A program made the translations under genes and the position numbers. Under the pieces are notes generated by a model that was not told the origin of the DNA, made no database searches, and saw only the letters and a program-made list of their open reading frames with translations. Below are positions 146 through 40,861 of a DNA stretch of 64,000 nt, piece after piece; the stretch's first letter is position 1; each line of letters starts with the position of its first letter. This DNA comes from an uncultured Candidatus Saccharibacteria bacterium (GTDB lineage: Bacteria > Patescibacteriota > Minisyncoccia > Phycocordibacterales > DATDWN01), in assembly GCA_964468795.1 (NCBI GenBank), contig CAYXWL010000014.1, forward strand, positions 22,376 to 86,375, given 5' to 3'.

Positions 146-189
146 TCTTCTTTTTAAAGACGAAGGCCGGCCCTTTCGAGCCGACCGTA

Positions 190-852
190 TTACAGAACAT
201 TATGAGCCCTGAGCTCTCGGATTACCTCCTCGTGAATTTCTTCGCGAGAACGCATGAGACCACGATGGTCCGTGCACCGGATATGGATCCAATGCTCCGG
301 GTTACGTGCGATGAGCCACTGAGCAGACTTGTGCGAATTCTCGATGTATCGCGGATTGTTCTCCACAATATCTCGTGTCTTCGAATCCATGTTACGATGC
401 GAGACTGCCGGCGGAACATCAAGGTAAACCGAAATGTCAGGCCGAGGGATCTTGTACTCGCCGTACTCGAGCTGCTCGAGCCATGCCAAAAACTCGATCC
501 TCTTTTCCTCATTCTCGATCTTACCGCCCTGATGGATCTGGTTCGAGCTCGCATAGCGATCGCACAGGACATACACTCCGTTCTCAAGCTCGCGCTCAAT
601 CTGTGCCTTCGACGCCCATCTGTCTGCGGCGTACAACGGCGCAGCCAAATGCGGGTCGAGCTCGACGAAGTTGCCGTAGTCGCCTCGAAGCGCCCTTCTC
701 AGCTCCCTGCCGAAGAATGTGTCTTCATAGCGCGGGAAACTGATTCGCACGACAGGCCGACAGTCTTCGACCAGGTACTTGCGCAAAAGATCGGTTTGAG
801 TTTGCTTTCCTGATCCGTCATTGCCGTCGATCACGATCATCTTTCCCCGCAT
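190..852 (-). CDS. tmk: thymidylate kinase
   Basis: MRGKMIVIDGNDGSGKQTQ P-loop and dTMP-kinase layout. AGGAGG RBS 4 nt upstream of the ATG at 852. GC-rich codon usage. Confidence 0.8.
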   Translation of the reverse strand: MRGKMIVIDGNDGSGKQTQTDLLRKYLVEDCRPVVRISFPRYEDTFFGRELRRALRGDYGNFVELDPHLAAPLYAADRWASKAQIERELENGVYVLCDRYASSNQIHQGGKIENEEKRIEFLAWLEQLEYGEYKIPRPDISVYLDVPPAVSHRNMDSKTRDIVENNPRYIENSHKSAQWLIARNPEHWIHIRCTDHRGLMRSREEIHEEVIRELRAHNVL

Positions 853-974
853 GGAACCTCCTAACAAATAGACTATATAAATACACATCTTTAATCAAAT
901 TGACAAAGGTTAGAAATCTAGTAGAAATAGGTACTAGATGCAGCAATTCCGCTGCCCTATTGGAGTTCCTTTAC

Positions 975-2288
975 ATGACGATTTTAAGCAAAGCTGCTTC
1001 TGAGATCATCGTCTTCGACGATGTGAAGCCGGAAGCTAACGCCATGATGCTCGCGCTCTATTCACGCAGCCCCCAATCGGTGAACGTTCACCGGGAACGC
1101 GTCGCCAAGGTCGGCGCCGACAAGTTCATGGACCAGTACTACGTGGGCTACGGCCATCAGTCGATCGGCGACTGCGGCACGACCAACATCTGCTTCGAGA
1201 ACGTCTCAATGCTCGCGGCCAAGGCGGTTCAGAACAATCGCCTGTACAACGGTCAGGAAGCATCGACGCGCTACCTCGACATGGCCTCGCAAGCAGTTCT
1301 CAACCCGCTCGGCACTCATCAAGGAGCCGCTATCCAGGAAGAATGGATGCGGCTCTACCGCAGTGCTCTCGATGCACTCGTCCCCTTCCTCAAGGAGAAG
1401 TACACGATGAAGGAAGATGAGAAGCCGAAGGAGTATGAGAAAGCGATCAGCGCACGCGCCTTCGATATCGCGCGCGCATTCCTGCCTGCCGGCTGCACGA
1501 CGTACGTCGGCTGGCACTCGACGCTTCGGCAAGCATGGGATCATGTTCACGACATGCTCTTCCATCCACTCGAAGAAGTTCGAAGTCTCGCTGAGAAGGC
1601 ACTTGCCGAGCTGCGCGAGAAGTATCCGAACAGCTTCGGATTTGAGAGAAAGAAGGAGGTGGACCAGTACTACAGGACCGCTTCTTCTGTTCTCTACTAT
1701 TCTACGGAAGTAATCCTGAAGGATTTCTCAGTTAGCACTGCCAACTTCAGTAAACACACGATCAGTGAGCAAGAACAGCGGTTCCTCACTTATCGTCCTC
1801 GCAAGGCGGAAGTCCCTTCCTTCTTCGAGAAATTCGGAACAATCAAATTCAGATTCTACCTCGACTTCGGATCGTTCCGCGACATCCAGCGTCACAGGAG
1901 CTGTTATCAGACGATGCCGCTCCTCACCACAAGGCTTGGGTTCCACCCATGGTACCTGGAGTCACTTCCGGACAGCTTCCGACGTGAAGCAGAGCGAACG
2001 ATCGCAAAGCAGGGGGATGCGATCTCTTCGATTCAGGACCTGGCTGTCGCCCAGTACTACACCGCCATGGGATTCCAGGTTGCCTGCGAGCTCGTTGCCA
2101 GCCTGCCATCGGCAATCTACATCGCCGAACTTCGTTCAACACCGGCCGTCCATCCAACCCTTCGTCCGATCGCTCAGAAAATGGGTGCGGCGCTCAAGGA
2201 GCTCCTCCCGTACATGGCGCTTTACGTCAACAACTCGCCGGACGAGTGGTCAACGATCCGCGGCAAGCACGATATCGTCCAAAAGTAA
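975..2288 (+). CDS. thyX: flavin-dependent thymidylate synthase ThyX-like, long tandem-domain form
   Basis: N-terminal LALYSRS resembles the ThyX ARxCYS region. The first half has a degenerate ThyX signature (QNNRLYNGQEASTRY, compare QWFRHRIASYNELSGRY). The second half has an intact QRHR. The frame-extended ORF could start at 900 or 975; GGAG sits 9 nt before 975. GC-rich. Confidence 0.55.
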   Translation: MTILSKAASEIIVFDDVKPEANAMMLALYSRSPQSVNVHRERVAKVGADKFMDQYYVGYGHQSIGDCGTTNICFENVSMLAAKAVQNNRLYNGQEASTRYLDMASQAVLNPLGTHQGAAIQEEWMRLYRSALDALVPFLKEKYTMKEDEKPKEYEKAISARAFDIARAFLPAGCTTYVGWHSTLRQAWDHVHDMLFHPLEEVRSLAEKALAELREKYPNSFGFERKKEVDQYYRTASSVLYYSTEVILKDFSVSTANFSKHTISEQEQRFLTYRPRKAEVPSFFEKFGTIKFRFYLDFGSFRDIQRHRSCYQTMPLLTTRLGFHPWYLESLPDSFRREAERTIAKQGDAISSIQDLAVAQYYTAMGFQVACELVASLPSAIYIAELRSTPAVHPTLRPIAQKMGAALKELLPYMALYVNNSPDEWSTIRGKHDIVQK

Positions 2289-2294
2289 GAAATA

Positions 2295-2328
2295 ATCCCC
2301 CGAGAGCCATTGGCTCTCGGGGGATGTG
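2295..2328. terminator. bidirectional rho-independent terminator between convergent thyX and dcd
   Basis: Perfect hairpin cccccgagagcc-attg-gctctcggggg. Confidence 0.6.
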
Positions 2329-2343
2329 TGTTTGTCTAAAAAA

Positions 2344-3465
2344 CTACTTCCACTCAGCGAACTGCTTGCCGAGCTTCGGGCCGTTCTGAGTTCCGTACGT
2401 CGGACTCATCTGGTCGTAATGCTGTTCAGGGATCCGCAACATCTTCTCATAGCGAATCTTGGCGATTGGCTGCCCATCTTGGATGATGATGCCATTGTCG
2501 AATGACCTCACCTCGAGAGTAAGCGGCCTCCCATTGCCTGATCCGTCAACACCGATACCCCAACCCGGGTCGATGAAGCCGGCGTAGTGCGAGCGCAAAT
2601 CTCCGCTTCGCTCATCCATCGGCCTCATCTCGCATGCAAGGCTCTCAGGTACTCTTACATACTCTCTGCTCGAGAGAATGTAGAAGTTGCCAGAGCGCAG
2701 CGTTACAGACGACTTGCCACACACCTTGCTGACTGTCACCTCGCGAAAGAAATTCCGCGGGTCATAGTGTGCTTTGAGAGAAAGGTCAATCGCCTCGCCC
2801 GTCTCGATCGCCTCGTACCCAGGAACTTCGAAGTTGAGTCCGAGCGAGAGAAGGATTGATCCGTCGCCGTCGGTGTGAGTGATGTCGGAATAGATAAACC
2901 CCTTGCCTTTCTCGTCAGCAAGAAGACCACCACCCGACTCGAACATCATCGAGAGCTGGAGCTCATCGAACCTCGTGTCTCCATTGAAGAACCGAAGTTG
3001 ATTGAGCGCGAGTCCTGGCGACACCAAGACCGGAAAGGTCTTGGGCACCACAAGGAGCCACAACGGCCCCTGATACTTCTCGTTGATCGCGTCATACCTC
3101 GACGAACGATCCACAAGAAGCCGCACATGCATGTCCACTCGACCACTCGATGATTTCGGATTGGCGAATGCGTATGTGTGCGCCGGAAAGCGGGCAATGC
3201 GTTCTGCAAGTCGGATGCAATAACAGCACCCTTTCTCGAGAAGCACTTTCGCTCCCGTGAGTCTGATGCCGCCCACGCGCCTCATGGCTGCCGCGACTGT
3301 CTCATCGCAACCCGGCAAGAAAGCGCCGTTTACACGATACACTTCGTCAGTGATCGCAAGGTCGAGCGAGCCAGGCCGAACGTTGCGAGGATCAGCCTCG
3401 ACAATGAGGCTCTCCCGTAACAACTCGTGAATGGTCTCGCTTGGTAGGGCTCCGATTTTTCCCAT
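2344..3465 (-). CDS. dcd: 2'-deoxycytidine 5'-triphosphate deaminase, long two-domain DCD form
   Basis: About 370 aa with two dCTP-deaminase/dUTPase-like halves, matching the long DCD family. Start chosen at MGKIG (GGAGA RBS) rather than ORF start 3606. GC-rich. Confidence 0.55.
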   Translation of the reverse strand: MGKIGALPSETIHELLRESLIVEADPRNVRPGSLDLAITDEVYRVNGAFLPGCDETVAAAMRRVGGIRLTGAKVLLEKGCCYCIRLAERIARFPAHTYAFANPKSSSGRVDMHVRLLVDRSSRYDAINEKYQGPLWLLVVPKTFPVLVSPGLALNQLRFFNGDTRFDELQLSMMFESGGGLLADEKGKGFIYSDITHTDGDGSILLSLGLNFEVPGYEAIETGEAIDLSLKAHYDPRNFFREVTVSKVCGKSSVTLRSGNFYILSSREYVRVPESLACEMRPMDERSGDLRSHYAGFIDPGWGIGVDGSGNGRPLTLEVRSFDNGIIIQDGQPIAKIRYEKMLRIPEQHYDQMSPTYGTQNGPKLGKQFAEWK

Positions 3466-3517
3466 TATGTTGTCTCCAAAAAAGAAGATTGTTCTGAGCA
3501 CAAGACTAACACACCCT

Positions 3518-3550
3518 CCAAAATTAAAAAAGACCTCTTTCGAGGTCTTT
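3518..3550 (-). terminator. rho-independent terminator downstream of rplK
   Basis: aaagacctc-tttc-gaggtcttt followed by a T-run on the minus strand. Confidence 0.55.
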
Positions 3551-3562
3551 TTTAATTTGTAG

Positions 3563-3988
3563 TTATCCCTTGATTTCAACTCCCATGCTTCGTGCAGATC
3601 CTGCAATGATCTTCATTGCTGCATCGATGTCGTTAGCGTTGAGATCTGGCATTTTCTTTTCTGCGATCTCCTTGAGCTGGGCCTTTGTGATAGAGCCAAT
3701 CTTTGAGACTGCATTCTTTCCTGATCCCTTCTCCTTACCCATAGCCTTTAGAATAAGTGCTGATGCTGGAGGAGTCTTTAGGATAAATGTGAATGTTCGG
3801 TCCTCGTATACTGAGATTTCAACTGGAACAACATCCCCCATCATCTTTGCTGTAGCATCGTTGAACTGCTTTACGAATTCACCGATGTTAACGCCAGCCT
3901 GTCCGAGGGCAGGTCCAATAGGAGGGGCGGGGTTAGCCTTTCCTGCCTGGATGACGAGTTTTAGCTTTTTTGTAATTTTCTTTGCCAT
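3563..3988 (-). CDS. rplK: 50S ribosomal protein L11
   Basis: [35 protein letters not shown], a canonical L11 N-terminus. Confidence 0.95.
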
Positions 3989-4160
3989 GTTTTTAGCTCC
4001 ACTACTTTATTATAAAAACCTATAAAATGCAAGGGTCTAGAAACTTTCATAATTTGGATGAAATCCGAGGCGGACGAGGAAAATGTTTCGAGCCTTATTT
4101 GAAATAAGGTGAGAAATATTTTACCGAAGTCCAACAAAGGAGTTCGCCAAATTTGGAAGT

Positions 4161-19814: not shown

Positions 19815-20028
19815 AATAATATAAATTAAATATCCGGGTTACCAGATATTTTAGTGCCCAGGAGAGGAGTCTCTGTAATATTATTCTCGCCGACGTTCGA
19901 ATAATATTACAGCGCAGATTCGCTACAAGCGCTGGTGGGCTCGTGCACCGCGAATCTGTTCGAGTCCCCCACGCAAAGCCATGCTTTGCTCTGGGCAAAC
20001 AAAAAAGCCGCATTCGCAGCTTTTTGTT

Positions 20029-20113
20029 TGGTGCCCAGGAGAGGACTCGAACCTCCACACCTTACGGCACACCCACCTCAAGGGTGCTTGTCTACCAATT
20101 TCAACACCTGGGC
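20029..20113 (-). tRNA. tRNA-Leu (GAG), CCA encoded
   Basis: Acceptor GCCCAGG/CCTGGGC, anticodon stem CACCC/GGGTG, loop TTGAGGT, long variable arm, T-loop TTCGAGT, 3' ACCA. Confidence 0.8.
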
Positions 20114-22158: not shown

Positions 22159-22414
22159 CAAAATGCATTTTGTGCCAGGACTCGAACGGCGGAGCGATTC
22201 TTGGTTTAACAAAACCAAGACGCGAGCCGGTGCCTAGACCTCCAATGAGCGACGGCGAATTGGAGAGTGGAGGGAGAGATTCCTGTATCGCGCACAACAA
22301 AACCCCATTTGGGGTTTTTGCTATAGAGATTCCAGTATCGCACACTGTAAGGATCGAGTCCTGGCAACGCTTCCCATTTTCTAATATCAATTTTTGTGTT
22401 ATCCTACTGTCATT

Positions 22415-26060: not shown

Positions 26061-26147
26061 GGATGGGTGGCTGAGTGGTCTAAAGCAACGGTCTTGAAAA
26101 CCGTCACCTGGGTAACTGGGTCGTGAGTTCGAATCTCACCCCATCCG
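26061..26147 (+). tRNA. tRNA-Ser (TGA)
   Basis: Acceptor GGATGGG/CCCATCC, anticodon stem ACGGT/ACCGT, loop CTTGAAA, long variable arm, T-arm GTGAG-TTCGAAT-CTCAC, discriminator G. Confidence 0.8.
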
Positions 26148-27608
26148 CATAGTAATATTATCGTCATCTTTTGACATCAAATCAAAAGGAGAATGCAAAG
26201 TAAAATCTAGCTTTTTTTGATTTAACACACAGTTCTGGAGTAAGAAACTTAAAAGTTGTCGTTTTTCATTTACTTCGGAACTCATAAAAATCTCTTTTGC
26301 TCTCTTGGCTATACTCAAGAGTATATTTGCTGTTACATAAAATTGTTCATCTGCTACAGAATGGTCACCCATTAACTCTAATATTTCAGCTTGTCTAGAT
26401 TTATATTCGGTTAATAACTTGTCATACATTTCTCCCGTAAGACGGCCGTCCAATCTGTCCTCGTACATCTTCCTTATTCTTATCTCATATTTATCGTAAT
26501 CAGCTTTCAAACTATTCATGCTGTTTTTATGGAACTTGTTTTCACTATCACCTAAATATCTCAATCCACTTTTTATTTCTTCAATTCTCTCATCTGATAA
26601 CTTAATGCTGTCCAAAATAGTATTCACTTGATCAATCAATTCACTTTCAGGCACATAAACTCTTTCACAGTTTTTATACCCTGAACAACTGTAATAAGCA
26701 TATTTACCCTTTTTAAGTTGTCCTCCAACAACACCTCCGCACTTAGAACAAGTTATTAATCCTCTAAACACAAAAGGTTTTGATGCATACTTTGTTGGAA
26801 CTTTATTGTGTCGCTCCATTACTTCCTGACATTTTTCAAATAATTCTTTTGAGACTATAGGTTTATATCTATGGGCATACAGTAATTTATGAGTCCTTGA
26901 ATATGCTTTACCGCAATAAAAATGGTTATTTAGCATATTAAATATCATTGCATGATTTACTTTTCCTCCTTCCTTACTTCGCAAACCAAAATCATACATT
27001 CTGTCAGATAGAGTAACAAAAGATACATCTCCCTTGGAATATTCCTCAAATGTCTTAACGACTAGATGAGCTTTTCCATCTGGAACAACATCAACTCTTC
27101 TCATCCTTAGTGGATTATTGTTATATACACTTTTGTATCCAAGTGGAGGTGCTCCGGTTATATCTCCATCTTCTCTCATCTTGCCTTGCTTTCTCTTTAG
27201 GTTATCACTCAATTGCAATACATAATTTCTAGCAAACAGGACTGACATATCCCACCTCATAAGATCAGCACTATTTGAATTTTTATTTATTACCAAGTTC
27301 TCTCTATAAAAATGAAGCTCGACCTTTTCTGCTTTTCTTAAATCATCAAATACAACTGACTCTCTGAAACTTCTTTGTAGTCTGTCTACAGTATCAACCA
27401 CCAAAGCCAAAGGTTCTTTAGATCTTTGTATTATTTCAATAATCTCATGAAACTTTTTTCTATCTCCTTTGGTTGATGACTCTTTAAGTTTAAACACTTT
27501 CCACTCCTCTAAATCTCTGTTTTTTACATAGGACATTATTCTAGATAACTGTGCTTCGTTTGAGTCCTGATTTTTGTCAGAAACTCTAGCTAATATAATT
27601 GTTTTCAT
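26136..27608 (-). CDS. large serine recombinase (resolvase catalytic domain + recombinase domain + zinc ribbon)
   Basis: ILARVSDKNQ catalytic-Ser motif and VVDTVDRLQRSF. C-terminal CSKCGG...YYSCSGYKNCE Zn-ribbon. Stop codon lies inside the tRNA-Ser 3' end. Confidence 0.85.
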   Translation of the reverse strand: MKTIILARVSDKNQDSNEAQLSRIMSYVKNRDLEEWKVFKLKESSTKGDRKKFHEIIEIIQRSKEPLALVVDTVDRLQRSFRESVVFDDLRKAEKVELHFYRENLVINKNSNSADLMRWDMSVLFARNYVLQLSDNLKRKQGKMREDGDITGAPPLGYKSVYNNNPLRMRRVDVVPDGKAHLVVKTFEEYSKGDVSFVTLSDRMYDFGLRSKEGGKVNHAMIFNMLNNHFYCGKAYSRTHKLLYAHRYKPIVSKELFEKCQEVMERHNKVPTKYASKPFVFRGLITCSKCGGVVGGQLKKGKYAYYSCSGYKNCERVYVPESELIDQVNTILDSIKLSDERIEEIKSGLRYLGDSENKFHKNSMNSLKADYDKYEIRIRKMYEDRLDGRLTGEMYDKLLTEYKSRQAEILELMGDHSVADEQFYVTANILLSIAKRAKEIFMSSEVNEKRQLLSFLLQNCVLNQKKLDFTLHSPFDLMSKDDDNITMRMG

Positions 27609-27627
27609 CTTTTTGTTATTTATTATT

Positions 27628-27975
27628 TTATAAGACTTTATTAATTTTCTCTGCCTCTGCTTTGGCTTTCTGTTGGTAACTTAAATACTCCTTTCTGTTT
27701 ATTGCATACATAGTTGAGTTGCTTAAAAACCTCTCTAGAACCTTAGCCATCGTGGTTTTTTGTAACTTAGCTATATATCTCAAAACGTTAAGATAATTAA
27801 TTCCCAATCTAACTAGTTTAGTTTTCCGGAAAGTCCGTCTTTTAGCTCTATTCTTAGAATTATCCCAAGACTTTCCGATCTCCACCCTCAACTCATCAAT
27901 CCAACCTTTATAATCAAATTCTTTAACTTTTTTCATATTTTGTTTACAATTTTTAATTATCATTTTTCCCCTCAT
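27628..27975 (-). CDS. small basic protein, possible HTH/DNA-binding
   Basis: 115 aa, Lys/Arg-rich. Adjacent to the recombinase. Confidence 0.3.
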   Translation of the reverse strand: MRGKMIIKNCKQNMKKVKEFDYKGWIDELRVEIGKSWDNSKNRAKRRTFRKTKLVRLGINYLNVLRYIAKLQKTTMAKVLERFLSNSTMYAINRKEYLSYQQKAKAEAEKINKVL

Positions 27976-28142
27976 CCATACATATTTTCTTTTGTAATGT
28001 TTATATTCTTTTCAATCAGTTAGGCTCCTCAGTTCCTAAATTTTTGTCTGACAAAAGAAATAAAAAGTTATTTATTGATGAGCATGTGAGGTCCCCCGTT
28101 GGATGACTCCAGAGCGGGGACTTGCACTTGCTCACCAATAAA

Positions 28143-28364
28143 TTACACAGCCGGTTTATTTTCTGAGAAACTCGCTGACGCCCCAGTTACAAAAGATTGT
28201 TTCAAACTATTTTTGCCTTGTAGACTAGAATATAAATTTGGATTTACACGCCTATCTACTTTGTAAAGAAGTGCGAAAAAATCAATCAAGTTTTTGTTTT
28301 CAAAACCTGTTTTAGTTTCGGCGACGAAACTTTTGGTATCATTTTTTCTTACCTTTACTGGCAT
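28143..28364 (-). CDS. hypothetical small protein
   Basis: ORF only. Confidence 0.25.
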   Translation of the reverse strand: MPVKVRKNDTKSFVAETKTGFENKNLIDFFALLYKVDRRVNPNLYSSLQGKNSLKQSFVTGASASFSENKPAV

Positions 28365-28413
28365 GATGCCAGTCTCTCATGTAACTAGTTTTTGCAATAT
28401 GAAATTAAGCGTA

Positions 28414-29223
28414 CTATGCTTGTTTTCTGTGTGATCTTTCTAAAGAGATCATTTTGTTTATATCATCATATGTGTATGGACCAACTTCACCTGATCTACT
28501 AATCTTTTTAAACTTTTGATTTACAAGCTTGGCTAAATCACTTCCTTTTATTTGACGGTTTTCCCAGACAAAAGCTTTTACCTCTTTAATTGAAGACTTT
28601 TTTGCTCGGAATTTGTTAATTTTTATTTCAGGATTTAAATATCTATCTTGAATAGGTTTAACTTCTGTAATAAACATTTTATGGATGTAATCAACTAACT
28701 CATTTTCCTTAACATATGGAGTAATGTTTATTGCAATGGGGTATTCTTTAACCGTTTGCTTGTTAACTTCGTTTCCCTCCACATCATTTTTTCTAATAGA
28801 GTCGCTTACAAGAACTTGCTTATACACGAAAGTATCTACTAAAGAAATCCTTTTGTTATAAAATACGAAAAACTCTACTGTGTCTGACCAACTTCTAATT
28901 GGTAAGGCATATTTTTCACAAATCTTATTTACATCTTTTTTTAATAAAAATTGTGCCTCATGCCCTTCTTTTTCATACCACTCATCTGGAATACTTGGAC
29001 CTTTATTTCTCCACTCATAACCCCTTAGAGGAATATGATGCTTAATTCTAATTGTTCTTACATCACTTAAAAAACGATCACCATTTGAAATCTCTACAAA
29101 ATATTTCCACATCTTTTTGAAAGAATTTGAGGAACGTAATCCTTTTACATTTCTCTCTTTAAAGTGGTCGTTCAAGACCTTTGAGTATTCTTGGTCAAAC
29201 TTGTCGTTTTTCTTCCAGTCCAT
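28414..29223 (-). CDS. hypothetical protein
   Basis: 269-aa ORF with no recognisable motifs. Confidence 0.35.
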   Translation of the reverse strand: MDWKKNDKFDQEYSKVLNDHFKERNVKGLRSSNSFKKMWKYFVEISNGDRFLSDVRTIRIKHHIPLRGYEWRNKGPSIPDEWYEKEGHEAQFLLKKDVNKICEKYALPIRSWSDTVEFFVFYNKRISLVDTFVYKQVLVSDSIRKNDVEGNEVNKQTVKEYPIAINITPYVKENELVDYIHKMFITEVKPIQDRYLNPEIKINKFRAKKSSIKEVKAFVWENRQIKGSDLAKLVNQKFKKISRSGEVGPYTYDDINKMISLERSHRKQA

Positions 29224-29348
29224 AAACGGAATTGTAATGAAATGTATACAAAATAGATAGCCCTACCTACACCAAATTGTGGCTTCTTGTGGCTTTGTTA
29301 TTTCCAATATATCCCTATAAATAAGGCTGTTTTGCCTACACAAGATAC

Positions 29349-29377
29349 TTGACAGAATAGTTAAATGGGTGTATAAT
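29349..29377 (+). promoter_or_regulatory. consensus sigma70-type promoter (TTGACA-17 bp-TATAAT) facing the small-gene array
   Basis: ttgaca at 29349-29354, a 17-nt spacer, tataat at 29372-29377. Followed by palindromes gaaagtgctcaa/ttgagctttc and gggac...gtccc. Confidence 0.6.
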
Positions 29378-29472
29378 TTGGATGTAATAAGTTGTTCTAA
29401 GAAAGTGCTCAATTTGAGCTTTCTCTTGGGACAATTTGGTCCCGATTTGTTCATTTTATCTGGAGGAAATCA

Positions 29473-29685
29473 ATGAAAAAAAGCCGTTATCTCGTGTTCT
29501 GGGTCTTGAACGGAACCATGAACATGGGGACTCAGACCGTAGAACTCAACGGTGTCATGAACACTGCTGAGTTCAACGATCTGCAGAAGAAATTGCGAAA
29601 GCAACACGGCAAGAACCTCTGCATTCAAGCCTTTAGCAAGTTTGAAGGCAATGATCTTCCGGTCATTAACATCAATGTGAAGTGA
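29473..29685 (+). CDS. small hypothetical protein (cassette 1 of GC-rich array)
   Basis: GGAGG RBS. 70 aa. Own GC hairpin terminator downstream. Confidence 0.4.
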   Translation: MKKSRYLVFWVLNGTMNMGTQTVELNGVMNTAEFNDLQKKLRKQHGKNLCIQAFSKFEGNDLPVININVK

Positions 29686-29799
29686 CCCCACCAAATATGG
29701 GGAGACTCAGTCTCCCCATCCCATCAAAGCAATTAAGAAACAATCTTGATTACTTTGATGGGATCAATTTCGATCCAAAGTTCTTTGAGGAGAATTTCA

Positions 29800-30060
29800 A
29801 TGCTCAAGTACAACGGTGGCTGCATGACCACTGAAGAGATCCTGAAGTTTCAGGAGTCCATGACTTTCAGCGATGCTGAAGGTTACTCAATACAGGACAC
29901 CGATCGGATCGTAAAGCATCTCAGACACTGTCAGAAGTGCCACGAGAGATGCGATGACGCGGTTCGTAACTACTTCAAGGAAAAGGAGCTCATTCGCTTG
30001 GGCTTCAAGACCGCAGCACAGATGATGCTCGACGGGATCGACAATCAGCGTCGTTTCTAG
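29800..30060 (+). CDS. small Cys/His-rich hypothetical protein (cassette 2)
   Basis: Start chosen after the conserved ttctttgaggag RBS block. HCQKCHERC cluster suggests metal binding. Confidence 0.4.
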   Translation: MLKYNGGCMTTEEILKFQESMTFSDAEGYSIQDTDRIVKHLRHCQKCHERCDDAVRNYFKEKELIRLGFKTAAQMMLDGIDNQRRF

Positions 30061-30175
30061 CACAACTTCTCCACAACGGGCGAACATCGGGTTCGCCCTC
30101 CCACCAAAGTAATTAAATCTTTTTGATTTCTTTGGTGGGGCAATTTTGCCCCGGTTCTTTCAAATTAGGTGTAGC

Positions 30176-30436
30176 ATGTTTGTTCAAATCGAAGTTCGGT
30201 ACGAATGGTTTGGCCAGAACACGGACATCAGCTTCGTCGGTCCTTTCGAGGATAAGTCGCTCGCTGTTACTTGGAGCGATGAATTCAATACCATCGCCAC
30301 AGTTCGCAAGGTCAAGGCGAAGTCCGAAGTCATTGAGGGTTCACCGACCAACCGAGTCGTCGAACCCGCAAACAAGACACCGCAAACTGTGCTCTCGACC
30401 GTCCTCCAGTCAATCAGCGAGGTCTGCCGAGGGTAA
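30176..30436 (+). CDS. small hypothetical protein (cassette 3)
   Basis: Preceded by the palindromic site and an RBS-like block. Start chosen at MFVQIEV. Confidence 0.35.
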   Translation: MFVQIEVRYEWFGQNTDISFVGPFEDKSLAVTWSDEFNTIATVRKVKAKSEVIEGSPTNRVVEPANKTPQTVLSTVLQSISEVCRG

Positions 30437-30542
30437 CACATACGGGCGACAGAACATCGTCGCCCTCCCATCAAAGTTTTTAATGTTTTGAAAATTTTGA
30501 CGGGATCAATAAGGGTCCTAAGTTCTTTGAGGAGATAGACGG

Positions 30543-31061
30543 ATGATTACTGCCAGAAAAGGTTTTCCGCCGGTTCCGACCGCCGTAGCATCCATTCTGT
30601 TGGTTGCGATCGGTTTGCTCGTTCTCAGCATCATTGGGAGAATGAGTGCCCCGCTCATCGCCTACAACGACGATGGAAGCAAGATGACGGTCTACGCGAA
30701 CGTCATCACCACTGCAATCGAGCAGGCGAAGTATCGTGTCACAGTGAGCACTCACTACGAACCAGGGAAGAAAGCGGTTCGGATCGTCGACATGTATTCC
30801 CTGGAAGACAAGATGCACGCCAGCGTCACAGGGATCATGCGTGAAGATCTTGGTACTTGGGTTCGTACCTGCGCACTTTCAGACGAGAGTCTGAAAGGAG
30901 CACAGCCCCAATGCAACGAGAACGACAACATCGCCCTACGACTACTCGATGAGGCGATGAAGAAGACGATGGTGCGTGAAAACGCCATCGGCAACATGGA
31001 AGTTTTCTGGGCATGGGAACAAGGAACGAAAGAGGTCATCAACCAGATCAAGAACAAGTAA
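30543..31061 (+). CDS. membrane-anchored hypothetical protein (cassette 4)
   Basis: ttctttgaggag RBS. N-terminal TM. Followed by terminator gaccgcc...ggcggtc. Confidence 0.45.
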   Translation: MITARKGFPPVPTAVASILLVAIGLLVLSIIGRMSAPLIAYNDDGSKMTVYANVITTAIEQAKYRVTVSTHYEPGKKAVRIVDMYSLEDKMHASVTGIMREDLGTWVRTCALSDESLKGAQPQCNENDNIALRLLDEAMKKTMVRENAIGNMEVFWAWEQGTKEVINQIKNK

Positions 31062-31092
31062 TACTTCGGTCTGGAACGTCTCCGACAGGACC

Positions 31093-31140
31093 GCCTTGCG
31101 CTAAGCGCTCGGCGGTCTTTCATTTTGTATACTTTTCAAA
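31093..31140 (+). terminator. rho-independent terminator after cassette 4
   Basis: ggaccgcc-ttgcgctaagcgct-cggcggtc followed by tttcatttt. Confidence 0.5.
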
Positions 31141-31437
31141 CACCCCCACTCCCCTCAAAAATTCGGTTTTGTTCGGATTTATAAAATGCCACCTATTTTC
31201 AAGAACAGCTTTAGTTTTACTCTATTTCTGGTATAATTGTGTATACAACTGAATATGGCCTAAACTTTTGAAAACAAGAGCATGGCACAGCAAGTCCTAA
31301 CAGACACAAAAAACCCATCATGGGGTTGTCTGTTAGGCCATATCGGGAAACCGGTATGAGAGGGTTCGCCCTCTACCCGTGGTGGGCTTTTTGTATTCTT
31401 AAAGTCCAAAACGGATTATTAAATTAATTACTAATCC

Positions 31438-31860
31438 ATGGATCAAACAATTCAACCTAAGAGGAGGTGGTACAAAAGTAAATGGTTTATTATTATAGTT
31501 GGAGTAATAGCACTAGTTATATTCTCAAGTTTTGGTGAAAGTAATACAAGCAACACAAGTACTAATCTATCTAACATTCCAAGTTCAGGCGAAGAGGGAT
31601 ACTTAAGAATAGAAAATAGTGAAATAGTTACTTTAGCTAGAACTAAAGAAGATTACGATGAACTCAATAAAGCTATGTATGCTAAAGATACTTACGGTAT
31701 AGCAAGAATGGTGATGGAGAATAAAGCTTTTGATGTTCCTGTTGGGACTAAGGTATTAGTTATTGATCAAAAATTTGGTGGTAGAAAAGTTAGAATACTT
31801 GAAGGTAAATATGCCATGGAAGATGGTTGGGTTGTTATGGAATTTGTAAGTAAGCAATAA
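31438..31860 (+). CDS. membrane-anchored hypothetical protein
   Basis: GGAGG RBS. N-terminal TM. Low-GC. Confidence 0.4.
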   Translation: MDQTIQPKRRWYKSKWFIIIVGVIALVIFSSFGESNTSNTSTNLSNIPSSGEEGYLRIENSEIVTLARTKEDYDELNKAMYAKDTYGIARMVMENKAFDVPVGTKVLVIDQKFGGRKVRILEGKYAMEDGWVVMEFVSKQ

Positions 31861-31862
31861 CT

Positions 31863-32057
31863 ATGAGGCCTGTAATTTCCAAGAAACACGCATTGGAATT
31901 ACAGAAAATAATTAAAGATACTACTGGAAGAAATCTACCCTTAGGGGACTGCTTTGCCCTACTGGGACACCTCTGTGGACTCCTAGGGCTCTTGTGGTCC
32001 GTAGAGGATAGAAAAAATACATCTGAACCCAAGAACAACACGAAGTCATTGTGGTAA
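31863..32057 (+). CDS. small hypothetical protein
   Basis: ORF begins 3 nt after the previous stop. Confidence 0.25.
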   Translation: MRPVISKKHALELQKIIKDTTGRNLPLGDCFALLGHLCGLLGLLWSVEDRKNTSEPKNNTKSLW

Positions 32058-32212
32058 CCAGCTGGTTTGCTTGATTACTAGATATTTTCTATATTATTCA
32101 TTTAAAATACATGCGTTTTGCACTCTTATAAATCCATATTATTTACAATTTTTATCCCCAAATTAACTCTTGCTGCTTTTTATAAACCCATTTGGTATAA
32201 TGTTCGTAAGTA

Positions 32213-33229
32213 ATGCAAAACACTAAAAAACTTAGAACTTTAGATTTATTTGCTGGAATAGGAGGAGTGAGAATGGGTTTTGAAAAAGCAGGATTTGAGA
32301 CCATTTTTGGAAATGATTTTGACCCCTATTGCAAAGCAACCTATGACCTCAATTTCAAAGAGGCTCCTCTTACAGTTGCAAGTATAACTGAACTAAAAAC
32401 ATCAGCCCTACCAAATTTTGATGTATTACTTGGAGGTTTTCCGTGTCAGCCATTTTCAATTGCTGGTTACAGAAGAGGTTTTTTAGACACAGGAAGAGGT
32501 GATTTATTTTTTGAGATTATTAGAATAATTCGAGACAAAAAACCTCAAGCTGTATTTTTGGAAAATGTAAAAAACCTAAAATCCCATGACAAAGGAAAAA
32601 CTTTCAGTATTATCTCGGAAGCTCTTAAAGATCAGGGGTACTATGTAAAAGTAATGGTTCTTAATAGCATGATGTATGGAAATGTCCCACAAAATAGGGA
32701 AAGGGTTTATATCGTAGGTTTCAAATCAAAAAAACAATATGATGCTTTTGAGTTTCCTGTGCCTACCCCTTTAACAAAATCTGTAGAAAGTGTCCTAGAG
32801 AAAAATGTTGATAAAAAATACTATTACAATAATTCCTCACTTTATGAAACTCTAAAAAAATCAGGAATGAAGAAAGGAGTTGTATATCAGTGGAGAAGAG
32901 CTTATGTCCGAGAAAATAAAAATGGAGTATGCCCAACCCTAACGGCTAATATGGGAATGGGAGGTCACAATGTGCCATTGATTAAAGACACTAAAGGAAT
33001 AAGAAAACTTACACCAAGGGAATGTGCAAGACTTCAGGGCTTTCCTGATACATACAAATTACCAACCACTTTACCAGACTCAAAGCTATACAAGCAGTTT
33101 GGGAACTCAGTGACAGTAACAGTAATTGAGCGTGTTGCTGAAGCAATGAAAAGAGCGTTAGAATACAAAGACAATGTTCCTAGACCGACAACCAAAAGAT
33201 CAAGTAGCCTACTACGAACGACTGCTTAA
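32213..33229 (+). CDS. dcm: DNA (cytosine-5)-methyltransferase
   Basis: Motif I LFAGIGG, IV GGFPCQPFS, VI ENV, VIII QNRER, C-terminal QFGNSV. Confidence 0.9.
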   Translation: MQNTKKLRTLDLFAGIGGVRMGFEKAGFETIFGNDFDPYCKATYDLNFKEAPLTVASITELKTSALPNFDVLLGGFPCQPFSIAGYRRGFLDTGRGDLFFEIIRIIRDKKPQAVFLENVKNLKSHDKGKTFSIISEALKDQGYYVKVMVLNSMMYGNVPQNRERVYIVGFKSKKQYDAFEFPVPTPLTKSVESVLEKNVDKKYYYNNSSLYETLKKSGMKKGVVYQWRRAYVRENKNGVCPTLTANMGMGGHNVPLIKDTKGIRKLTPRECARLQGFPDTYKLPTTLPDSKLYKQFGNSVTVTVIERVAEAMKRALEYKDNVPRPTTKRSSSLLRTTA

Positions 33230-34361
33230 AGCGGTTGGCTCTTTATCTAACCTTTTCTCAGAGTCTCCTGAGCCTTATTTGGCGTCCAGGGCTACTGAAA
33301 ACCTATTTTGTAAGGCTTTTAATGCAGAAAACCTTTCAAGATCTGATGCTTCCGCTGATGCTTCAAAAAATCGCATTGGACTTGGTATAAAAACCTTTCT
33401 TGAGGGTAACGGGCGTACCATGCAAAAAATAGCTGAATTCAATGGTGATCACATGCTATTTGAGTCTTTATCTCCTACAGAAAAAATAAAGAAAATAGCT
33501 GAATTAAGGAATGAAAGAATTGAAACAACTAAGCGTATTTTTGGATTAGATGAACTTATTTATCATTGTATAACAAGAAAAGTAGGAAAAATCTTGGTTT
33601 ACGAGACCTCTACTCCATTAATTAATATATCTGAAATTAAAGATGTAAAAGTAAACAAGAAAGAAAGTGTAATTCAATTTTCAGATAACACAGCAGAGTA
33701 TTCATTCAATGTATCCAAAAGCACTCTATATAAAAGATTTATTACTGAAAACATTTTATTGGATGTTCCCGTAAGAATACTTACTGATCCATTTTCAGAG
33801 ATAGAAAAACTTATTGCAGAAAAGGGTCTTATTTTTGCCCCAGAAAAAGTTTTACCTCATGTATTTTTACCTCTTTATTCAACAAGAGGCGGAGATAAAC
33901 ATGTGCCTGAAAAAAGCGGACTAAACCAATGGAATGCTCAGGGAAGACCGCGCGACCTGAATGAAGTCTATGTTCCTATACCAGCATGGATACACAGAAA
34001 GTTTCCTGGATTTTTTCCTCCCAGAGACCAAGCTTTTGAATTAACACTTCCAAATAGAGATATTCTTAGTGCTAAGATTTGTCAGGATAATTCAAAAGCC
34101 TTAATGAGTAACCCTAACTTAGCTTTAGGTAAATGGCTTCTAAGAGATGTAATGAACTTAAAGGAAGGTGAACTTCTTACTTATGAAAAATTGCAGACAA
34201 TTGGGCTAGATGCAGTAGTAGTCTACAAGATAGATAACCAGCATTATGATATTGATTTTACAAAAATTGGATCTTATGAAAAGTTTGAGATTGAGAATGG
34301 AGAAGGAACAAAGGATGATGAGTCGGAAACCATTACTGAACAAGACCAAGACGAAGAATAA
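33174..34361 (+). CDS. putative type II restriction endonuclease partnered with the C5-MTase
   Basis: 395-aa ORF overlapping the MTase 3' end. No recognisable family motif; called by position. Acidic C-terminal tail. Confidence 0.35.
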   Translation: MFLDRQPKDQVAYYERLLKAVGSLSNLFSESPEPYLASRATENLFCKAFNAENLSRSDASADASKNRIGLGIKTFLEGNGRTMQKIAEFNGDHMLFESLSPTEKIKKIAELRNERIETTKRIFGLDELIYHCITRKVGKILVYETSTPLINISEIKDVKVNKKESVIQFSDNTAEYSFNVSKSTLYKRFITENILLDVPVRILTDPFSEIEKLIAEKGLIFAPEKVLPHVFLPLYSTRGGDKHVPEKSGLNQWNAQGRPRDLNEVYVPIPAWIHRKFPGFFPPRDQAFELTLPNRDILSAKICQDNSKALMSNPNLALGKWLLRDVMNLKEGELLTYEKLQTIGLDAVVVYKIDNQHYDIDFTKIGSYEKFEIENGEGTKDDESETITEQDQDEE

Positions 34362-34494
34362 CCAGCTACCGAACAATACTAAAATTATTATATAAAATTA
34401 ATTCTTGAGTCACTTTATTAAAATTTATAGTTCTAAACGCATTTAACCATTCCCGCAGACAAAAACACCATACAAATGGTGTTTTTGCTTTTAA

Positions 34495-34686
34495 GCGGAT
34501 GGGGTGAGATTCGAACAGATAGGGGTCGGGAAAGAAAGTCTTTCCCGGGGAGGAAGGCTTGGGAAAACCGTGGGTTTACCAGAGGTTCGCAGACTCACCA
34601 TTCCGACAACGAGTCGCGGTCGAAAGAATCTTGTTTTGCCGAAAACAAAATTACTTGAGACGGAATCTCACTCTTTCTCCCCTCCC
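34495..34686 (+). repeat. tRNA-fragment-associated structured element, copy 1 (inverted tRNA-Ser 3' fragment + conserved hairpin)
   Basis: Positions 34495-34516 are the reverse complement of tRNA-Ser 3' end gttcgaatctcaccccatccgc. Hairpin cgggaaagaaagtctttcccg. ggaaaaccgtgggttt shared with copy 2. Confidence 0.5.
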
Positions 34687-34740
34687 AATACAAATCTCCA
34701 CTTCACAACTTTTTATCTATTCACATGATAAAATTCTAAT

Positions 34741-35253
34741 ATGAGTGAATTTGGAACCGATCTGCAGGAAAAGCAAATATTTTATCTATTTGAAGGAAGC
34801 CTGTTTTTAAAAGGCGTACATGCTGTAATTGAAATTATTGGCGGAATATTGACTCTCTTCATTACTCAAAACTTCTTAATCAATGCAGTATTAGATATAA
34901 CCCACAAGGAGCTCGCTGAAGATCCGCACGATTTTCTAGTCAATTACCTGCTCCATTCGGCAAACAACTTTTCTATTAGTTCCAAATATTTTATTGCGTT
35001 CTACCTACTTAGCCACGGTGTGATAAAAGGAATACTAGTTATTTTGCTTTATGCAAAAAAGCTGTGGGCATATCCTGTTTCAATATTTGTATTTGGACTT
35101 TTTATGATATACCAGATACAGAGATACACTCGCACTCATTCCGTCTGGCTAATTGCCTTTACAATATTTGATGCATTTGTGATTTGGCTCATATGGCATG
35201 AATATAAACTTCAAAAATCCAAATCTGGGCTTGTTAGTTTGAAATCATCATAG
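34741..35253 (+). CDS. multi-TM membrane protein
   Basis: Four or more hydrophobic helices. Confidence 0.4.
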   Translation: MSEFGTDLQEKQIFYLFEGSLFLKGVHAVIEIIGGILTLFITQNFLINAVLDITHKELAEDPHDFLVNYLLHSANNFSISSKYFIAFYLLSHGVIKGILVILLYAKKLWAYPVSIFVFGLFMIYQIQRYTRTHSVWLIAFTIFDAFVIWLIWHEYKLQKSKSGLVSLKSS

Positions 35254-35285
35254 ATAAGTTGCCAGCCGAGTGATATAATTTTGAT

Positions 35286-35735
35286 ATGAAACTAAAACAA
35301 TTGTCAGTTTTATTGTCTAGAATCGCACTGTTCGTAATATATTTTTGGTTTGGAATATTAAAAGTTATCGGCCTATCACCTGCAAGCGGAATTGTACAGG
35401 AGCTTTTCGCAAAAACACTAAGCCCAATTCTTCACGCACTGCACCTATCTTTTATCACAGCCGGAACATTTGTTGTCATATTCGGAGTATTTGAAGTCAT
35501 AATAGGACTATTATTTATAATTCCTGGAAAAGAGAGATGGGCCATATATGCATTTTTTGCCCATATAGTTACAACAGGTCTTCCGCTATTTTTCCTAAAG
35601 ACATCTGTTTGGACTGGAGTTTTCGTTCCAACGCTTGAGGGTCAGTACATTATAAAAAATCTAGCATTGATTGCCTGCGTTGTTAATATATGGTCAATAT
35701 TGCCGACAAAAACAGAAGATCCGGTTATAATATAA
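35286..35735 (+). CDS. DoxX-like multi-TM membrane protein
   Basis: Four hydrophobic helices; about 149 aa. Confidence 0.35.
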   Translation: MKLKQLSVLLSRIALFVIYFWFGILKVIGLSPASGIVQELFAKTLSPILHALHLSFITAGTFVVIFGVFEVIIGLLFIIPGKERWAIYAFFAHIVTTGLPLFFLKTSVWTGVFVPTLEGQYIIKNLALIACVVNIWSILPTKTEDPVII

Positions 35736-35738
35736 ATT

Positions 35739-36200
35739 ATGAATAAAATTTCCTGGAAAGCATTTGAATATTTGCACACAGAAAAAACCTCAGACTGGTA
35801 TTGGATCGTCGGAATAATCAGCGTGTCTATAGCCATACTTGCAGTAATATTCAATAACCTAATATTTGCTCTGCTCATTTTGGTATCAGCTGCAACCCTT
35901 TCCCTCTTTGCATCTAGGCCTCCACATCTAATAGAGATAAGCATTGATGCAGCTGGCGTAACTATAGGAAAAACTAGATACCCATACGTCCATCTCGAAT
36001 CTTTTTGGGTTGAAACAAACGAACATTACCCGAGGCTTCTCCTGAAATCAAAAAAGGTTTTAATGCCTTTTATTGTGGCTCTCATAGAAGAACACGATGT
36101 TCATCCAGATGAGATAAGAACATTTTTGCTCAATCATTTGCCAGAAGAAGAGCACACAGAACCTCTTTTGGAAAAAGTACTGCTTTACTTGGGCTTTTAG
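35739..36200 (+). CDS. membrane protein
   Basis: Two TM helices plus a soluble C-terminus. Confidence 0.35.
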   Translation: MNKISWKAFEYLHTEKTSDWYWIVGIISVSIAILAVIFNNLIFALLILVSAATLSLFASRPPHLIEISIDAAGVTIGKTRYPYVHLESFWVETNEHYPRLLLKSKKVLMPFIVALIEEHDVHPDEIRTFLLNHLPEEEHTEPLLEKVLLYLGF

Positions 36201-36238
36201 TTTTTTCTACCTTTTGTGATAATCTGACCATTATCTAT

Positions 36239-36310
36239 GCTCTCGTAGTTTAATGGATAGAATGCAACTTTGCGGAAGTTGCGATCCAAGTTCGATTCTT
36301 GGCGAGAGCA
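36239..36310 (+). tRNA. tRNA-Arg (GCG; anticodon assignment tentative)
   Basis: Same scaffold as the 22415 tRNA (GCTCTCG...GTTCGATTCTTGGCGAGAGC). Anticodon stem CAACT/AGTTG, loop TTGCGGA. Confidence 0.55.
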
Positions 36311-36464
36311 CAAAATATACGTAGTAGATTTTGCTTGAGCCAAAATCGAACTAGATAGGGGTCGGGAAAGATAGTCTTTCCCGTGTCGGAAAGCAGCGAG
36401 CAGAGCGAGCGTTGGAAAACCGTGGGTTTCCAAGGAGAGAGATATCCTGGCGAGAGCACAAAAC
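36311..36464 (+). repeat. tRNA-fragment-associated structured element, copy 2, bounded by a direct repeat of the tRNA-Arg 3' end
   Basis: ggcgagagcacaaaa at 36301-36315 and 36449-36463. Interior hairpin cgggaaagatagtctttcccg plus ggaaaaccgtgggttt. Confidence 0.5.
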
Positions 36465-36492
36465 AAAAAAACCACCAAATGGTGGTTTTTTG
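36465..36492. terminator. rho-independent terminator downstream of rpsT
   Basis: aaaaaaccacca-aat-ggtggtttttt hairpin. Confidence 0.55.
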
Positions 36493-40554: not shown

Positions 40555-40747
40555 AAAATTTAAAAAATCCTGATTACTCAGGATTTTTTATTTTGTGCGC
40601 CCAGGGGAATCGAATCTTACAGATTCTGTACACCTGTTCTACTTTTTGTTGCTAACCGCACAAAAAGTTATCACAGGTCTTCGATTCCCCACAAAACTAT
40701 CTCCCAGACAGTTTCTCCGGGTCTACAAATTTCAAAATTGAAATTTT

Positions 40748-40820
40748 GTGCGCCCGGGGGGAATCGAACCCTCGACCATCTCCTTAAAAGGGAGCTGCTC
40801 TACCGACTGAGCTACGGGCG
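40748..40820 (-). tRNA. tRNA-Lys (TTT)
   Basis: Acceptor GCGCCCG/CGGGCGC, D-stem GCTC/GAGC, anticodon loop CTTTTAA, T-loop TTCGATT. One mismatch each in the anticodon stem and T stem. Confidence 0.6.
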
Positions 40821-40861
40821 CAAGTATTTCAAAATATAACAGAAAACTGACTAAAGTCCAA

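Follow-up and report, generated by a model that had tools for sequence, protein, structure and literature searches.

The window analysed here, a 64,000-nucleotide (nt) stretch of contig CAYXWL010000014.1 (assembly GCA_964468795.1) from an uncultured Candidatus Saccharibacteria bacterium, contains two copies of a small structured element. These are associated with the transfer RNA (tRNA) genes for tRNA-Ser(TGA) (26061–26148, +) and tRNA-Arg(GCG) (36239–36311, +), both located with ARAGORN and Rfam. The element measures about 130–190 bp, and each copy consists of a core with several hairpins between arms that resemble a tRNA 3′ end. We consider both to be members of a family of small, site-specific integrative mobile elements of the candidate phyla radiation (CPR, Patescibacteria) that contain no open reading frame (ORF), and assign this reading a probability of about 0.6.

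The two copies in the window

The shared core sequence, GGGGTCGGGAAAGA[A/T]AGTCTTTCCCG, occurs at 34522–34547 and 36358–36383, both on the plus strand, where 0 matches would be expected by chance; the 64,000 nt hold no third copy. The sequence GGAAAACCGTGGGTTT is also present exactly twice, at 34562–34577 and 36414–36429. A covariance model derived from relatives gave only two matches in the window: 34509–34585 (E = 3e-12) and 36344–36418 (E = 1.6e-11). The exact matches and the model confirm an earlier note on this DNA, which had reported two copies with a common hairpin (9-bp stem). This invariant hairpin has 9–10 bp, and the copies have a second hairpin in common. Both hairpins are identical in the two copies, while the linker, the length, the 3′ domain and the flanking arms differ. 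The fold z-scores of the two copies range from −2.2 to −2.9. Neither has an Rfam match, even at E ≤ 10, and the ORFs that overlap them, regarded as junk in the note, are short and without support.

Copy 1 draws its arms from the 3′ end of tRNA-Ser (segment B, about 26126–26148), from which it is now separated by an island of 8.3 kb. Its spacer (C) is the terminator-like hairpin caaaaacaccatacaaatggtgtttttg (34460–34487, +), recognized from the sequence and placed between the target gene and arm D. The same order of tRNA, hairpin and arm D is found at other loci of the family (denoted by L numbers), including L008, L009, L011, L012 and L031. As the note had stated, the copy opens with an inverted tRNA-Ser fragment: arm D starts at 34495 and extends to 34516 (+), covers the tRNA from position 53 to the discriminator plus one nucleotide, and is the reverse complement of 26126–26147 at 22 of 22 positions. 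Core E (34517–34662, +), defined by the shared sequences and the covariance-model match, comprises AGATAGGGGT, hairpin 1 (34527–34547), GGGGAGGAAGG, hairpin 2 (about 34561–34580) and a 3′ domain (34581–34662) in which a hairpin stands between CGAGTCGCGGTCGAAAG and ACTTGAGACG. This 3′ domain is homologous to the cores of the tRNA-Ser and tRNA-Val elements in L042. Arm B′ (34663–34686, +), made up of GAATCTCAC, a 7-nt insertion and CCCcTCCc, is a degenerate direct repeat of the tRNA-Ser 3′ end. It pairs with arm D and closes the element, which agrees with the complementarity between the two ends pointed out in the note.

Copy 2 lies, as had been noted, between tRNA-Arg(GCG) (segments A and B) and a direct repeat of its 3′ end. 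This repeat, arm B′ (cctggcgagagcac; 36446–36459, +), is 14 nt long and is followed by a terminator (36465–36491). Core E (36352–36445, +), identified in the same way as that of copy 1, contains TAGATAGGGGT, hairpin 1 (36363–36383), GTGTCGGAAAG, an optional GA-rich hairpin (36393–36411), hairpin 2 (36412–36433) and GGAGAGAGATAT. An inverted arm D resembling a tRNA 3′ end (ttgcttgagccaaaatcgaac; 36331–36351, +) can be added to the first description; it ends in the T-loop complement TCGAAC and matches tRNA-Arg at only 20 of about 25 aligned positions. Its reverse complement, GTTCGATTTTGGCTCAAGCAA, looks like the 3′ end of a tRNA whose acceptor is of the U1-A72 type, as that of tRNA-Gln is, and fits tRNA-Arg poorly. 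The cores closest to that of copy 2 are those of L020 (tRNA-Gln) and L026/L069 (tRNA-Thr). Judged by its sequence and by these closest cores, this arm may be a leftover of a previous target.

Copy 2 is best explained as an insertion at tRNA-Arg(GCG). For copy 1 the best explanation is an insertion at tRNA-Ser(TGA), followed by the entry of a serine-recombinase island into the same tRNA end, which moved the copy 8.3 kb away.

Distribution, layout and targets of the family

A search for the hairpin pattern in genomes, one per species, returned 34 loci, 16 of which were judged to be real. All 16 belong to Patescibacteria/CPR, namely Saccharibacteria, Paceibacterota, Minisyncoccia, Yanofsky-, Taylor- and Parcubacteria. 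A metagenome scan revealed 34 further contigs with the core. The two sets yielded 39 distinct core sequences from about 50 loci in total. The scan for further copies suggested in the note thus gave about 50 more of them in CPR genomes and metagenomes, and the element is not confined to this genome.

The units share the layout target gene (A–B), C, D, E, B′ and measure about 130–250 bp. Nearly all have a tRNA or transfer-messenger RNA (tmRNA) gene 20–130 nt upstream on the same strand. Segment B, which begins at the insertion point and comprises the rest of the gene up to its 3′ end, keeps the gene intact. The spacer C has 0–60 nt in about 45 loci and often forms a terminator hairpin; D repeats the first 12–26 nt of B in inverted orientation; E is the conserved multi-hairpin core; and B′ is the displaced direct repeat of B, usually next to a further terminator. 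Both B and B′ were found in nearly all loci; the tRNAs are intact according to ARAGORN and the protein ORFs retain their stop codons. The B/B′ repeat is 9–82 nt long, and the arms differ from target to target. A casposon-like or transposase-type fixed target duplication was rejected on account of these repeat lengths. The tRNA fragments seen in the earlier note do exist, but they are target-derived arms of the element itself.

At tRNA loci, D reaches from position 53 to the 3′ end and often on into the trailer, while B′ begins at position 60/61, just after an element-borne GTGAGAT. Some of these loci have B, C and D joined in a single, almost perfect palindrome of 21 bp (L037), 26 bp (L072) or 29 bp (L051). 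Snap-back synthesis as the origin of D fits these three palindromic loci but was rejected, since it fails for gyrB and L032, where D pairs only with the first 12–15 nt of a 33–82-nt B. Arm D ends in TCGAAC, the T-loop complement, only at tRNA targets; at protein targets it ends in AAAAGC, TAAAGT or TTTTCC.

At least 14 tRNA species are targeted, among them Gly(tcc), Lys(ttt, ctt), Gln(ctg), Ile, Met, Thr, Arg(tcg, gcg), Ser(tga, gct), Glu(ctc), Pro and Asn, as well as tmRNA (three contigs) and at least four protein genes. The latter are hit at their 3′ ends: gyrB (L050, L056 and L071), the last 82 nt of which, including the stop codon, are repeated exactly (B and B′ of L050 agree at 82/82 positions), and genes for a histidine kinase (L074), a membrane protein (L032) and an L11-like protein (L046). 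In the protein-gene loci D pairs only with the first 12–20 nt of B, and E is the exact loop of the D/B′ hairpin. The functional upstream B of L032 and L074 matches D perfectly, while B′ is diverged and encodes a homologous C-terminus. Such a pattern is expected of a B-C-D-E unit that arrived from a different lineage and pushed the original gene end aside.

The tmRNA and protein-gene targets argue against one of the two ideas in the earlier note, a conserved non-coding RNA hitch-hiking at tRNA genes. The other, a tRNA-targeting mobile or integrative family, is supported by spread, position, covariation and turnover; its targets are wider than tRNAs, and an RNA may or may not be involved. No ORF is present inside the units, and promoter/terminator scans found no promoter for the element. 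In L024 (about 1220–1312, −) a displaced 3′ half of tRNA-Gly, from the anticodon arm to the 3′ end, lies between the intact tRNA-Gly(tcc) and the element, which indicates a further, different integration in the anticodon loop upstream.

Fold and covariation of the core

The outer eight pairs of hairpin 1 were set by the search pattern and are uninformative on conservation. The inner pair was not constrained by the pattern; it is A-T in 31 cores, G-C in 8 and broken in none. The outer pairs of hairpin 2 differ in a compensatory manner (TTGAAACC/GGTTTCAA, TTAAAACC/GGTTTTAA, TTCAAACC/GGTTTGAA, GAGAACC/GGTTCTC), and parsing of the cores by hand revealed exchanges between A-T and G-C and between G-C, A-T and C-G. 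A covariance model was built from 15 cores, and all 39 were aligned to it. In this alignment, which is fitted to the model and in about ten sequences places the second helix on the optional GA-rich hairpin instead of hairpin 2, 96.9% of paired cells are complementary, as compared to 84.5% in shuffles. Both-sided changes occur in 10 of 18 pairs. The covariation score of 0.278, to be read with the same reservation, compares with 0.082 in shuffles and was reached by 0 of 500 of them; slid controls stayed at or below 0.095. The covariation of the shared hairpins that the note had proposed to look for is therefore present.

Wobble pairs are confined to one strand: in the 39 cores, the tRNA-sense strand has 13 G-U and 0 A-C. 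The fold z-scores of whole elements range from −2.4 to −5.2. Loops of the GNRA type occur on the tRNA-sense strand, and the core contains tandem G-A motifs. It may be closed by a possible long-range helix, GGTCG/CGAC. From the covariation, the one-sided wobbles and the fold z-scores we infer that E acts as a folded single strand, DNA or RNA, with the polarity of the target gene, i.e. on the tRNA-sense strand.

Several other assignments of the fold were tried and rejected. The G-U pairs in the arms of copy 2 had prompted the idea of an RNA gene on the minus strand, with a bidirectional terminator and a 3′ end like that of a tRNA. It disagrees with the wobbles, which in the 39 cores are confined to the tRNA-sense strand, and with the GNRA-type loops, which lie on that strand. 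The tmRNA, signal recognition particle RNA, RNase P RNA, 6S RNA, T-box, YrlA and self-cleaving ribozymes were discarded for want of an Rfam match. The linker motif UGGN varies independently of the discriminator base.

Variable parts of several cores (L009, L020, L036, L048, L053, L067 and L068) contain the heptamer GCGAAGC, often as TAGCGAAGCG. This heptamer forms an unusually stable mini-hairpin in single-stranded DNA, and its recurrence may be a sign that the fold is one of DNA rather than RNA.

Evidence for movement

L061, at tRNA-Lys(ttt), and L075, at tRNA-Ser(gct), are two loci from one groundwater series (Hainich H14, from which L058 also comes). Between GGATTCGAAC and GAGATTCCT their cores are identical apart from 5 of about 165 nt. 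Their arms and spacers are unrelated to each other, and each set matches its own tRNA. Other pairs of cores with 85–88% identity are located at different targets as well.

Four genomes related to that of the window were reached through homologues of the window serine recombinase. Among these and the window, the tRNA-Arg(gcg) element occurs in the window only. The same is true of the tRNA-Leu element, though the 3′ end of tRNA-Leu in L044 is identical. The tRNA-Val elements have three different cores or are missing (other cores in L040 and L042, none in L044). A single tRNA carries 1–3 units; second units, complete or internally deleted and decayed, were found in L026, L050, L079 and at the tRNA-Val of the window. 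Taken together, the elements are mobile and without ORFs, restore the gene end, do not stem from a recent segmental duplication and are probably not a host RNA gene.

Related elements and serine-recombinase islands

Three more elements of the same layout but with other cores were found in the window. One lies on the minus strand (19854–19996) behind tRNA-Leu(GAG) (20029–20113, −) and consists of D (19958–19996), a different core (19870–19957) and B′ (19854–19869). The element behind tRNA-Val(TAC) (22172–22295, +) has D at 22172–22187, the core at 22188–22280 and B′ at about 22281–22295; two more decayed right arms follow at 22326–22345 and 22351–22370. Behind tRNA-Lys(TTT) (40748–40821, −) an element at 40595–40726 (−) includes D (40679–40726), the core (40615–40678) and B′ (40595–40614). 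The covariance model of the main family does not match these cores, which share with it the short motifs GGGGTCG plus hairpin and a GAGCGNNGGCGA loop. Five of the seven tRNA genes in the window are occupied by elements.

The island that separates copy 1 from its target occupies 26126–34456 in the 3′ end of tRNA-Ser(TGA). It encodes a large serine recombinase of 490 amino acids (26136–27608, −), which adjoins tRNA-Ser and overlaps it with its last codons, a Dcm methylase (32213–33229), an NgoFVII-like restriction enzyme (33174–34361) and several ORFs without a Pfam match. Relatives have recombinase homologues with 70–76% identity at the syntenic position, and the cargo of their islands is different (Mrr, SocA/Panacea, DUF3800, Bro-N/phage CRI); no homologue was found in IMG/VR. 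All of these tRNA-Ser islands close with the conserved sequence GTTCTRAACGCATYTAACCAYTCCCGC (34430–34456 in the window), a degenerate repeat of the tRNA-Ser end that resembles an attachment (att) site and is followed by terminator C and D-E-B′. In L042, D-E-B′ is without hairpins 1 and 2 and retains the 3′ domain of copy 1; L040 keeps only 9 nt of D, and L044 nothing. Since relatives' islands persist where D-E-B′ is reduced or absent, the island is a unit with ends of its own that entered between tRNA-Ser and an element already in place. Its own conserved right end and this persistence rule out that the 8.3 kb island is the cargo or the autonomous form of copy 1.

A comparable case is L065 (1–2244), in which a unit of 1.8 kb is placed exactly between tRNA-Gln and C-D-E. 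It is precisely absent in L020 (1580–1760), where C-D-E is contiguous. The unit contains a large serine recombinase of 514 amino acids between perfect inverted repeats of about 130 bp and a 25-bp hairpin. The repeats encode the C-terminal 40 residues of the recombinase at both ends, and the unit looks like a minimal serine-recombinase transposon or an invertible module.

Some further features of the window should be mentioned. Inside the island, a full-length match to the Rfam LOOT RNA motif was found at 31257–31374 (+) (81 bits, E = 1e-13); the main text of the 2017 motif paper does not deal with this motif. The region just upstream of it (30000–31100) has a GC content of 0.51 against about 0.36 around it and overlapping ORFs on both strands with no Pfam match. 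Instead of genes, this region might represent foreign DNA or a large non-coding RNA. Outside the island, positions 1–4000 have a GC content of 0.48–0.55, as compared to about 0.37–0.40 elsewhere, and encode proteins of dTMP/dCTP metabolism, namely a thymidylate kinase, a ThyX-like protein of 462 amino acids and a two-domain dCTP deaminase. This cluster may have been acquired horizontally.

Interpretation and alternative explanations

If the elements are integrative, E would be a cis-acting module that recruits a recombinase or transposase encoded elsewhere. The D/B stem, with E as the loop, would mimic the target in double-stranded form, and exchange of one strand at the foot of the stem would insert B-C-D-E into the gene. 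Integron attC sites and the attP hairpin of CTXφ recombine in this way, as folded single strands with one-strand exchange. Such a mechanism predicts a hairpin at one end of the insert beside the target repeat, the arrangement seen here. Also, the mismatch between GTGAGAT and the T-loop complement resembles the unpaired centre of attC and CTX sites. By analogy, a folded single-strand hairpin site like attC or CTXφ attP is our best guess. A single core is used at many targets, and in each case the arms fit the site where it lies; it therefore seems to be base pairing, and not the recognition of DNA by a protein, that decides the choice of target. A bolder version, which we put forward tentatively and regard as possible though doubtful, holds that E is a self-contained folded module of about 100 nt that, with a host or trans-acting enzyme, inserts wherever the 12–26-nt arm D base-pairs and rebuilds its arms at each jump. 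If true, it would be a minimal nucleic-acid-guided insertion system, distinct from bridge-RNA, group II intron and CRISPR-transposon systems.

Several observations weigh against a family of integrative elements of this kind. No recombinase or transposase is linked to the elements, and the scanned ORFs of the window gave only the serine recombinase of the separate island. We saw no free or circular form, no clean pair of empty and filled sites within one species, and no polymorphism among the same-strain contigs L001–L005. The model leaves the rebuilding of arms at a new target unexplained; a simple site-specific circle would retain the old ones. In copies of the tRNA type, the stem beside E is an imperfect mimic of the target, with GTGAGAT in place of the T-loop, and the left half of the tRNA site is not reproduced. 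The elements at tRNA-Gly(tcc) and tRNA-Lys recur in many genomes, which could reflect vertical inheritance and a host function. An intact core beside a diverged arm D, as in copy 2, fits in-place selection on E as well as it fits mobility, and GNRA-type loops and tandem G-A motifs suit RNA as well as DNA.

Movement through RNA, as in a retro-element or viroid, would have E and its arms transcribed from the tRNA promoter or by read-through, with a closing stem like a tRNA minihelix; a trans-acting reverse transcriptase would copy and re-insert them, and template switching at the conserved T-loop would make the new arms. The tRNA-sense polarity, with its 13 G-U and 0 A-C pairs, agrees with this, as do the RNA-like GNRA-like loops and tandem G-A motifs and the mimicry of the acceptor/T-stem in the closing stem. 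The lack of a terminator between tRNA and element in window copy 2, L017/L061 and L020 makes co-transcription possible. Arm boundaries at tRNAs lie in the universally conserved T-loop, a possible template-switch microhomology that would explain re-targeting. However, most copies have a strong terminator between tRNA and D, the element has no promoter-like site, the protein-gene targets are devoid of a T-loop, and no reverse transcriptase is encoded near any copy. The arms include the trailer and never CCA; their template was thus DNA or a primary transcript and not the mature tRNA. We consider such a route unlikely. An immobile host gene for a non-coding RNA, such as a tRNA-minihelix mimic that is processed by RNase P or RNase Z, has a function in the cell and is duplicated together with tRNA genes, would account for the strong conservation and covariation of the core across distant CPR lineages, for its conservation at orthologous tRNA-Gly(tcc) and tRNA-Lys loci, for a closing stem equal to the acceptor and T-stem of the neighbouring tRNA and for the intact core of copy 2 next to a decayed arm. 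It is nevertheless improbable in view of the same core at ends of protein genes, with arms from those genes and displaced ends that are diverged or exact duplicates. Nor does an immobile gene agree with presence and absence among related genomes behind identical tRNAs, with tandem and internally deleted units, with nearly identical cores at different tRNAs, or with the usual upstream terminator and the lack of an evident promoter.

Alternatively, the elements might be relics of islands that encode an integrase, with E representing arm sites flanking attP, the bodies deleted and the serine-recombinase islands as intact versions. Direct repeats of tRNA 3′ ends are a classic signature of integrase insertion, and in two independent cases (tRNA-Ser of the window and L042; tRNA-Gln of L065 as compared to L020) a large serine recombinase sits exactly between tRNA and C-D-E. 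These islands have ends of their own, however: the tRNA-Ser islands terminate with GTTCTRAACGCATYTAACCAYTCCCGC upstream of C-D-E and persist next to 9 nt of D-E-B′ (L040) or none (L044), and the L065 unit is bounded by its 130-bp inverted repeats and precisely absent in L020. About 45 other copies have no gene between tRNA and E, a protein-recognized attP would not follow at least 18 targets with one core, and there are no matches in IMG/VR or in phage and plasmid collections. Such an origin is hardly convincing. A recent segmental duplication within this genome, a possibility raised in the note, or a chance similarity without any family could appeal to the core occurring only twice in 64 kb, but its probability is negligible. 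It is contradicted by an expectation of 0 chance matches, by about 50 homologous copies in other CPR genomes, by the covariation, and by linkers, 3′ domains and arms that differ between window copies with identical hairpins.

Novelty and significance

The elements have no match in Rfam 15, either at the gathering threshold or at E ≤ 10 or E ≤ 1, and none in a pattern scan of IMG/VR or in BLAST searches of phages and plasmids. No prior description was found in Rfam 15, the full-text literature or the motif survey of Weinberg (2017); these searches were limited, and a description elsewhere is possible. As far as searched, the element is thus previously undescribed, while its kind, a non-autonomous integrative element, is itself known. 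There is a substantial chance that targeting by base pairing with a free arm is a new principle.

CPR/Patescibacteria have very small genomes, for which, to our knowledge, few mobile elements have been described. A widespread element without ORFs that enters the ends of essential genes harmlessly shows how these small genomes still get remodelled. The elements also mark integration hot spots, as seen from the two cases of serine-recombinase islands in the same sites. If targeting by base pairing were confirmed, they would be a very compact candidate for programmable DNA insertion and would add a new case to the recombination sites that act as folded single strands. On the practical side, the arms create repeats of tRNA fragments that break assemblies and can be mistaken for tRNA pseudogenes or genes of non-coding RNAs; the same-strain contig L001 begins about 150 nt upstream of the DUF2127 gene, i.e. 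within copy 1.

Comparison with known systems

Integrative elements in tRNA and tmRNA genes and their non-autonomous derivatives, such as cis-mobilizable elements (CIMEs) and integrative mobilizable elements, share with the units described here the insertion in 3′ parts of tRNA, tmRNA and conserved protein genes, a replacement gene end, a direct repeat at the far junction, tandem accretion and a crossover in or next to the T-loop. Classical tRNA-targeting islands, however, have their own integrase beside att, and each type uses one attB; the present units are about 130–250 bp long, have no ORF and serve at least 18 targets with one core. In addition, an inverted copy of the target, D, always lies beside the core, and a covarying single-strand fold takes the place of protein-binding arm sites.

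The resemblance to XerCD-dependent CTXφ attP(+) and to integron attC includes an imperfect hairpin that imitates a duplex partner and has a variable or structured terminal loop, its location at one end of the insert beside the target repeat, a signal confined to one strand (here G-U wobbles on the sense strand only) and a mismatched bubble by the presumed crossover (here GTGAGAT opposite the T-loop complement). The stem here has neither a conserved R-box (RYYYAAC/GTTRRRY), which in attC lies at the foot of the hairpin, nor a dif-like core; it is free in sequence and follows the target. The loop, which is variable in attC, is here the conserved part E. Neither IntI, Xer nor another integrase was found near the elements among the window ORFs scanned, and there is no cassette ORF and no array of ORFs.

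Hairpin-forming miniature inverted-repeat transposable elements (MITEs) such as Correia/NEMIS, ERIC, RUP and BOX, and the palindrome-associated elements (PATEs) derived from IS200/IS605, are likewise short, multi-copy and without ORFs, with inverted termini around a structured middle, and are intergenic, located downstream of genes and presumably mobilized in trans. Their termini are constant transposase-binding sites with target duplications of 2–10 bp, while the termini described here are copies of the target (12–82 nt) and the middle is constant. The ends of IS200/IS605 use DNA guides of 4 nt, as compared to 12–26 nt in D.

Host RNAs with tRNA-like parts, such as minihelix mimics and the tRNA-like domains of tmRNA and YrlA, differ in that a closing stem of acceptor and T-stem is found here only at tRNA and tmRNA targets, and in that the element side has GTGAGAT in place of the T-loop sequence TTCGAAT.

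Elements that bear guides (bridge or seek RNAs of IS110/IS1111, pairing of exon- and intron-binding sites, EBS-IBS, in group II introns, and the ωRNA of TnpB/IscB) also have a structured non-coding part that matches the flanking target. Neither an IS110-type (DEDD/RuvC-like), an intron-encoded nor a TnpB protein is present beside the units, no ORF lies in or next to them, and they do not match the Rfam models of guide RNAs. By analogy with these guided systems, target choice looks programmable by base pairing. The guides of the known systems are split between loops or placed at the 3′ end, whereas here one contiguous inverted copy of the target forms a stem with a direct copy.

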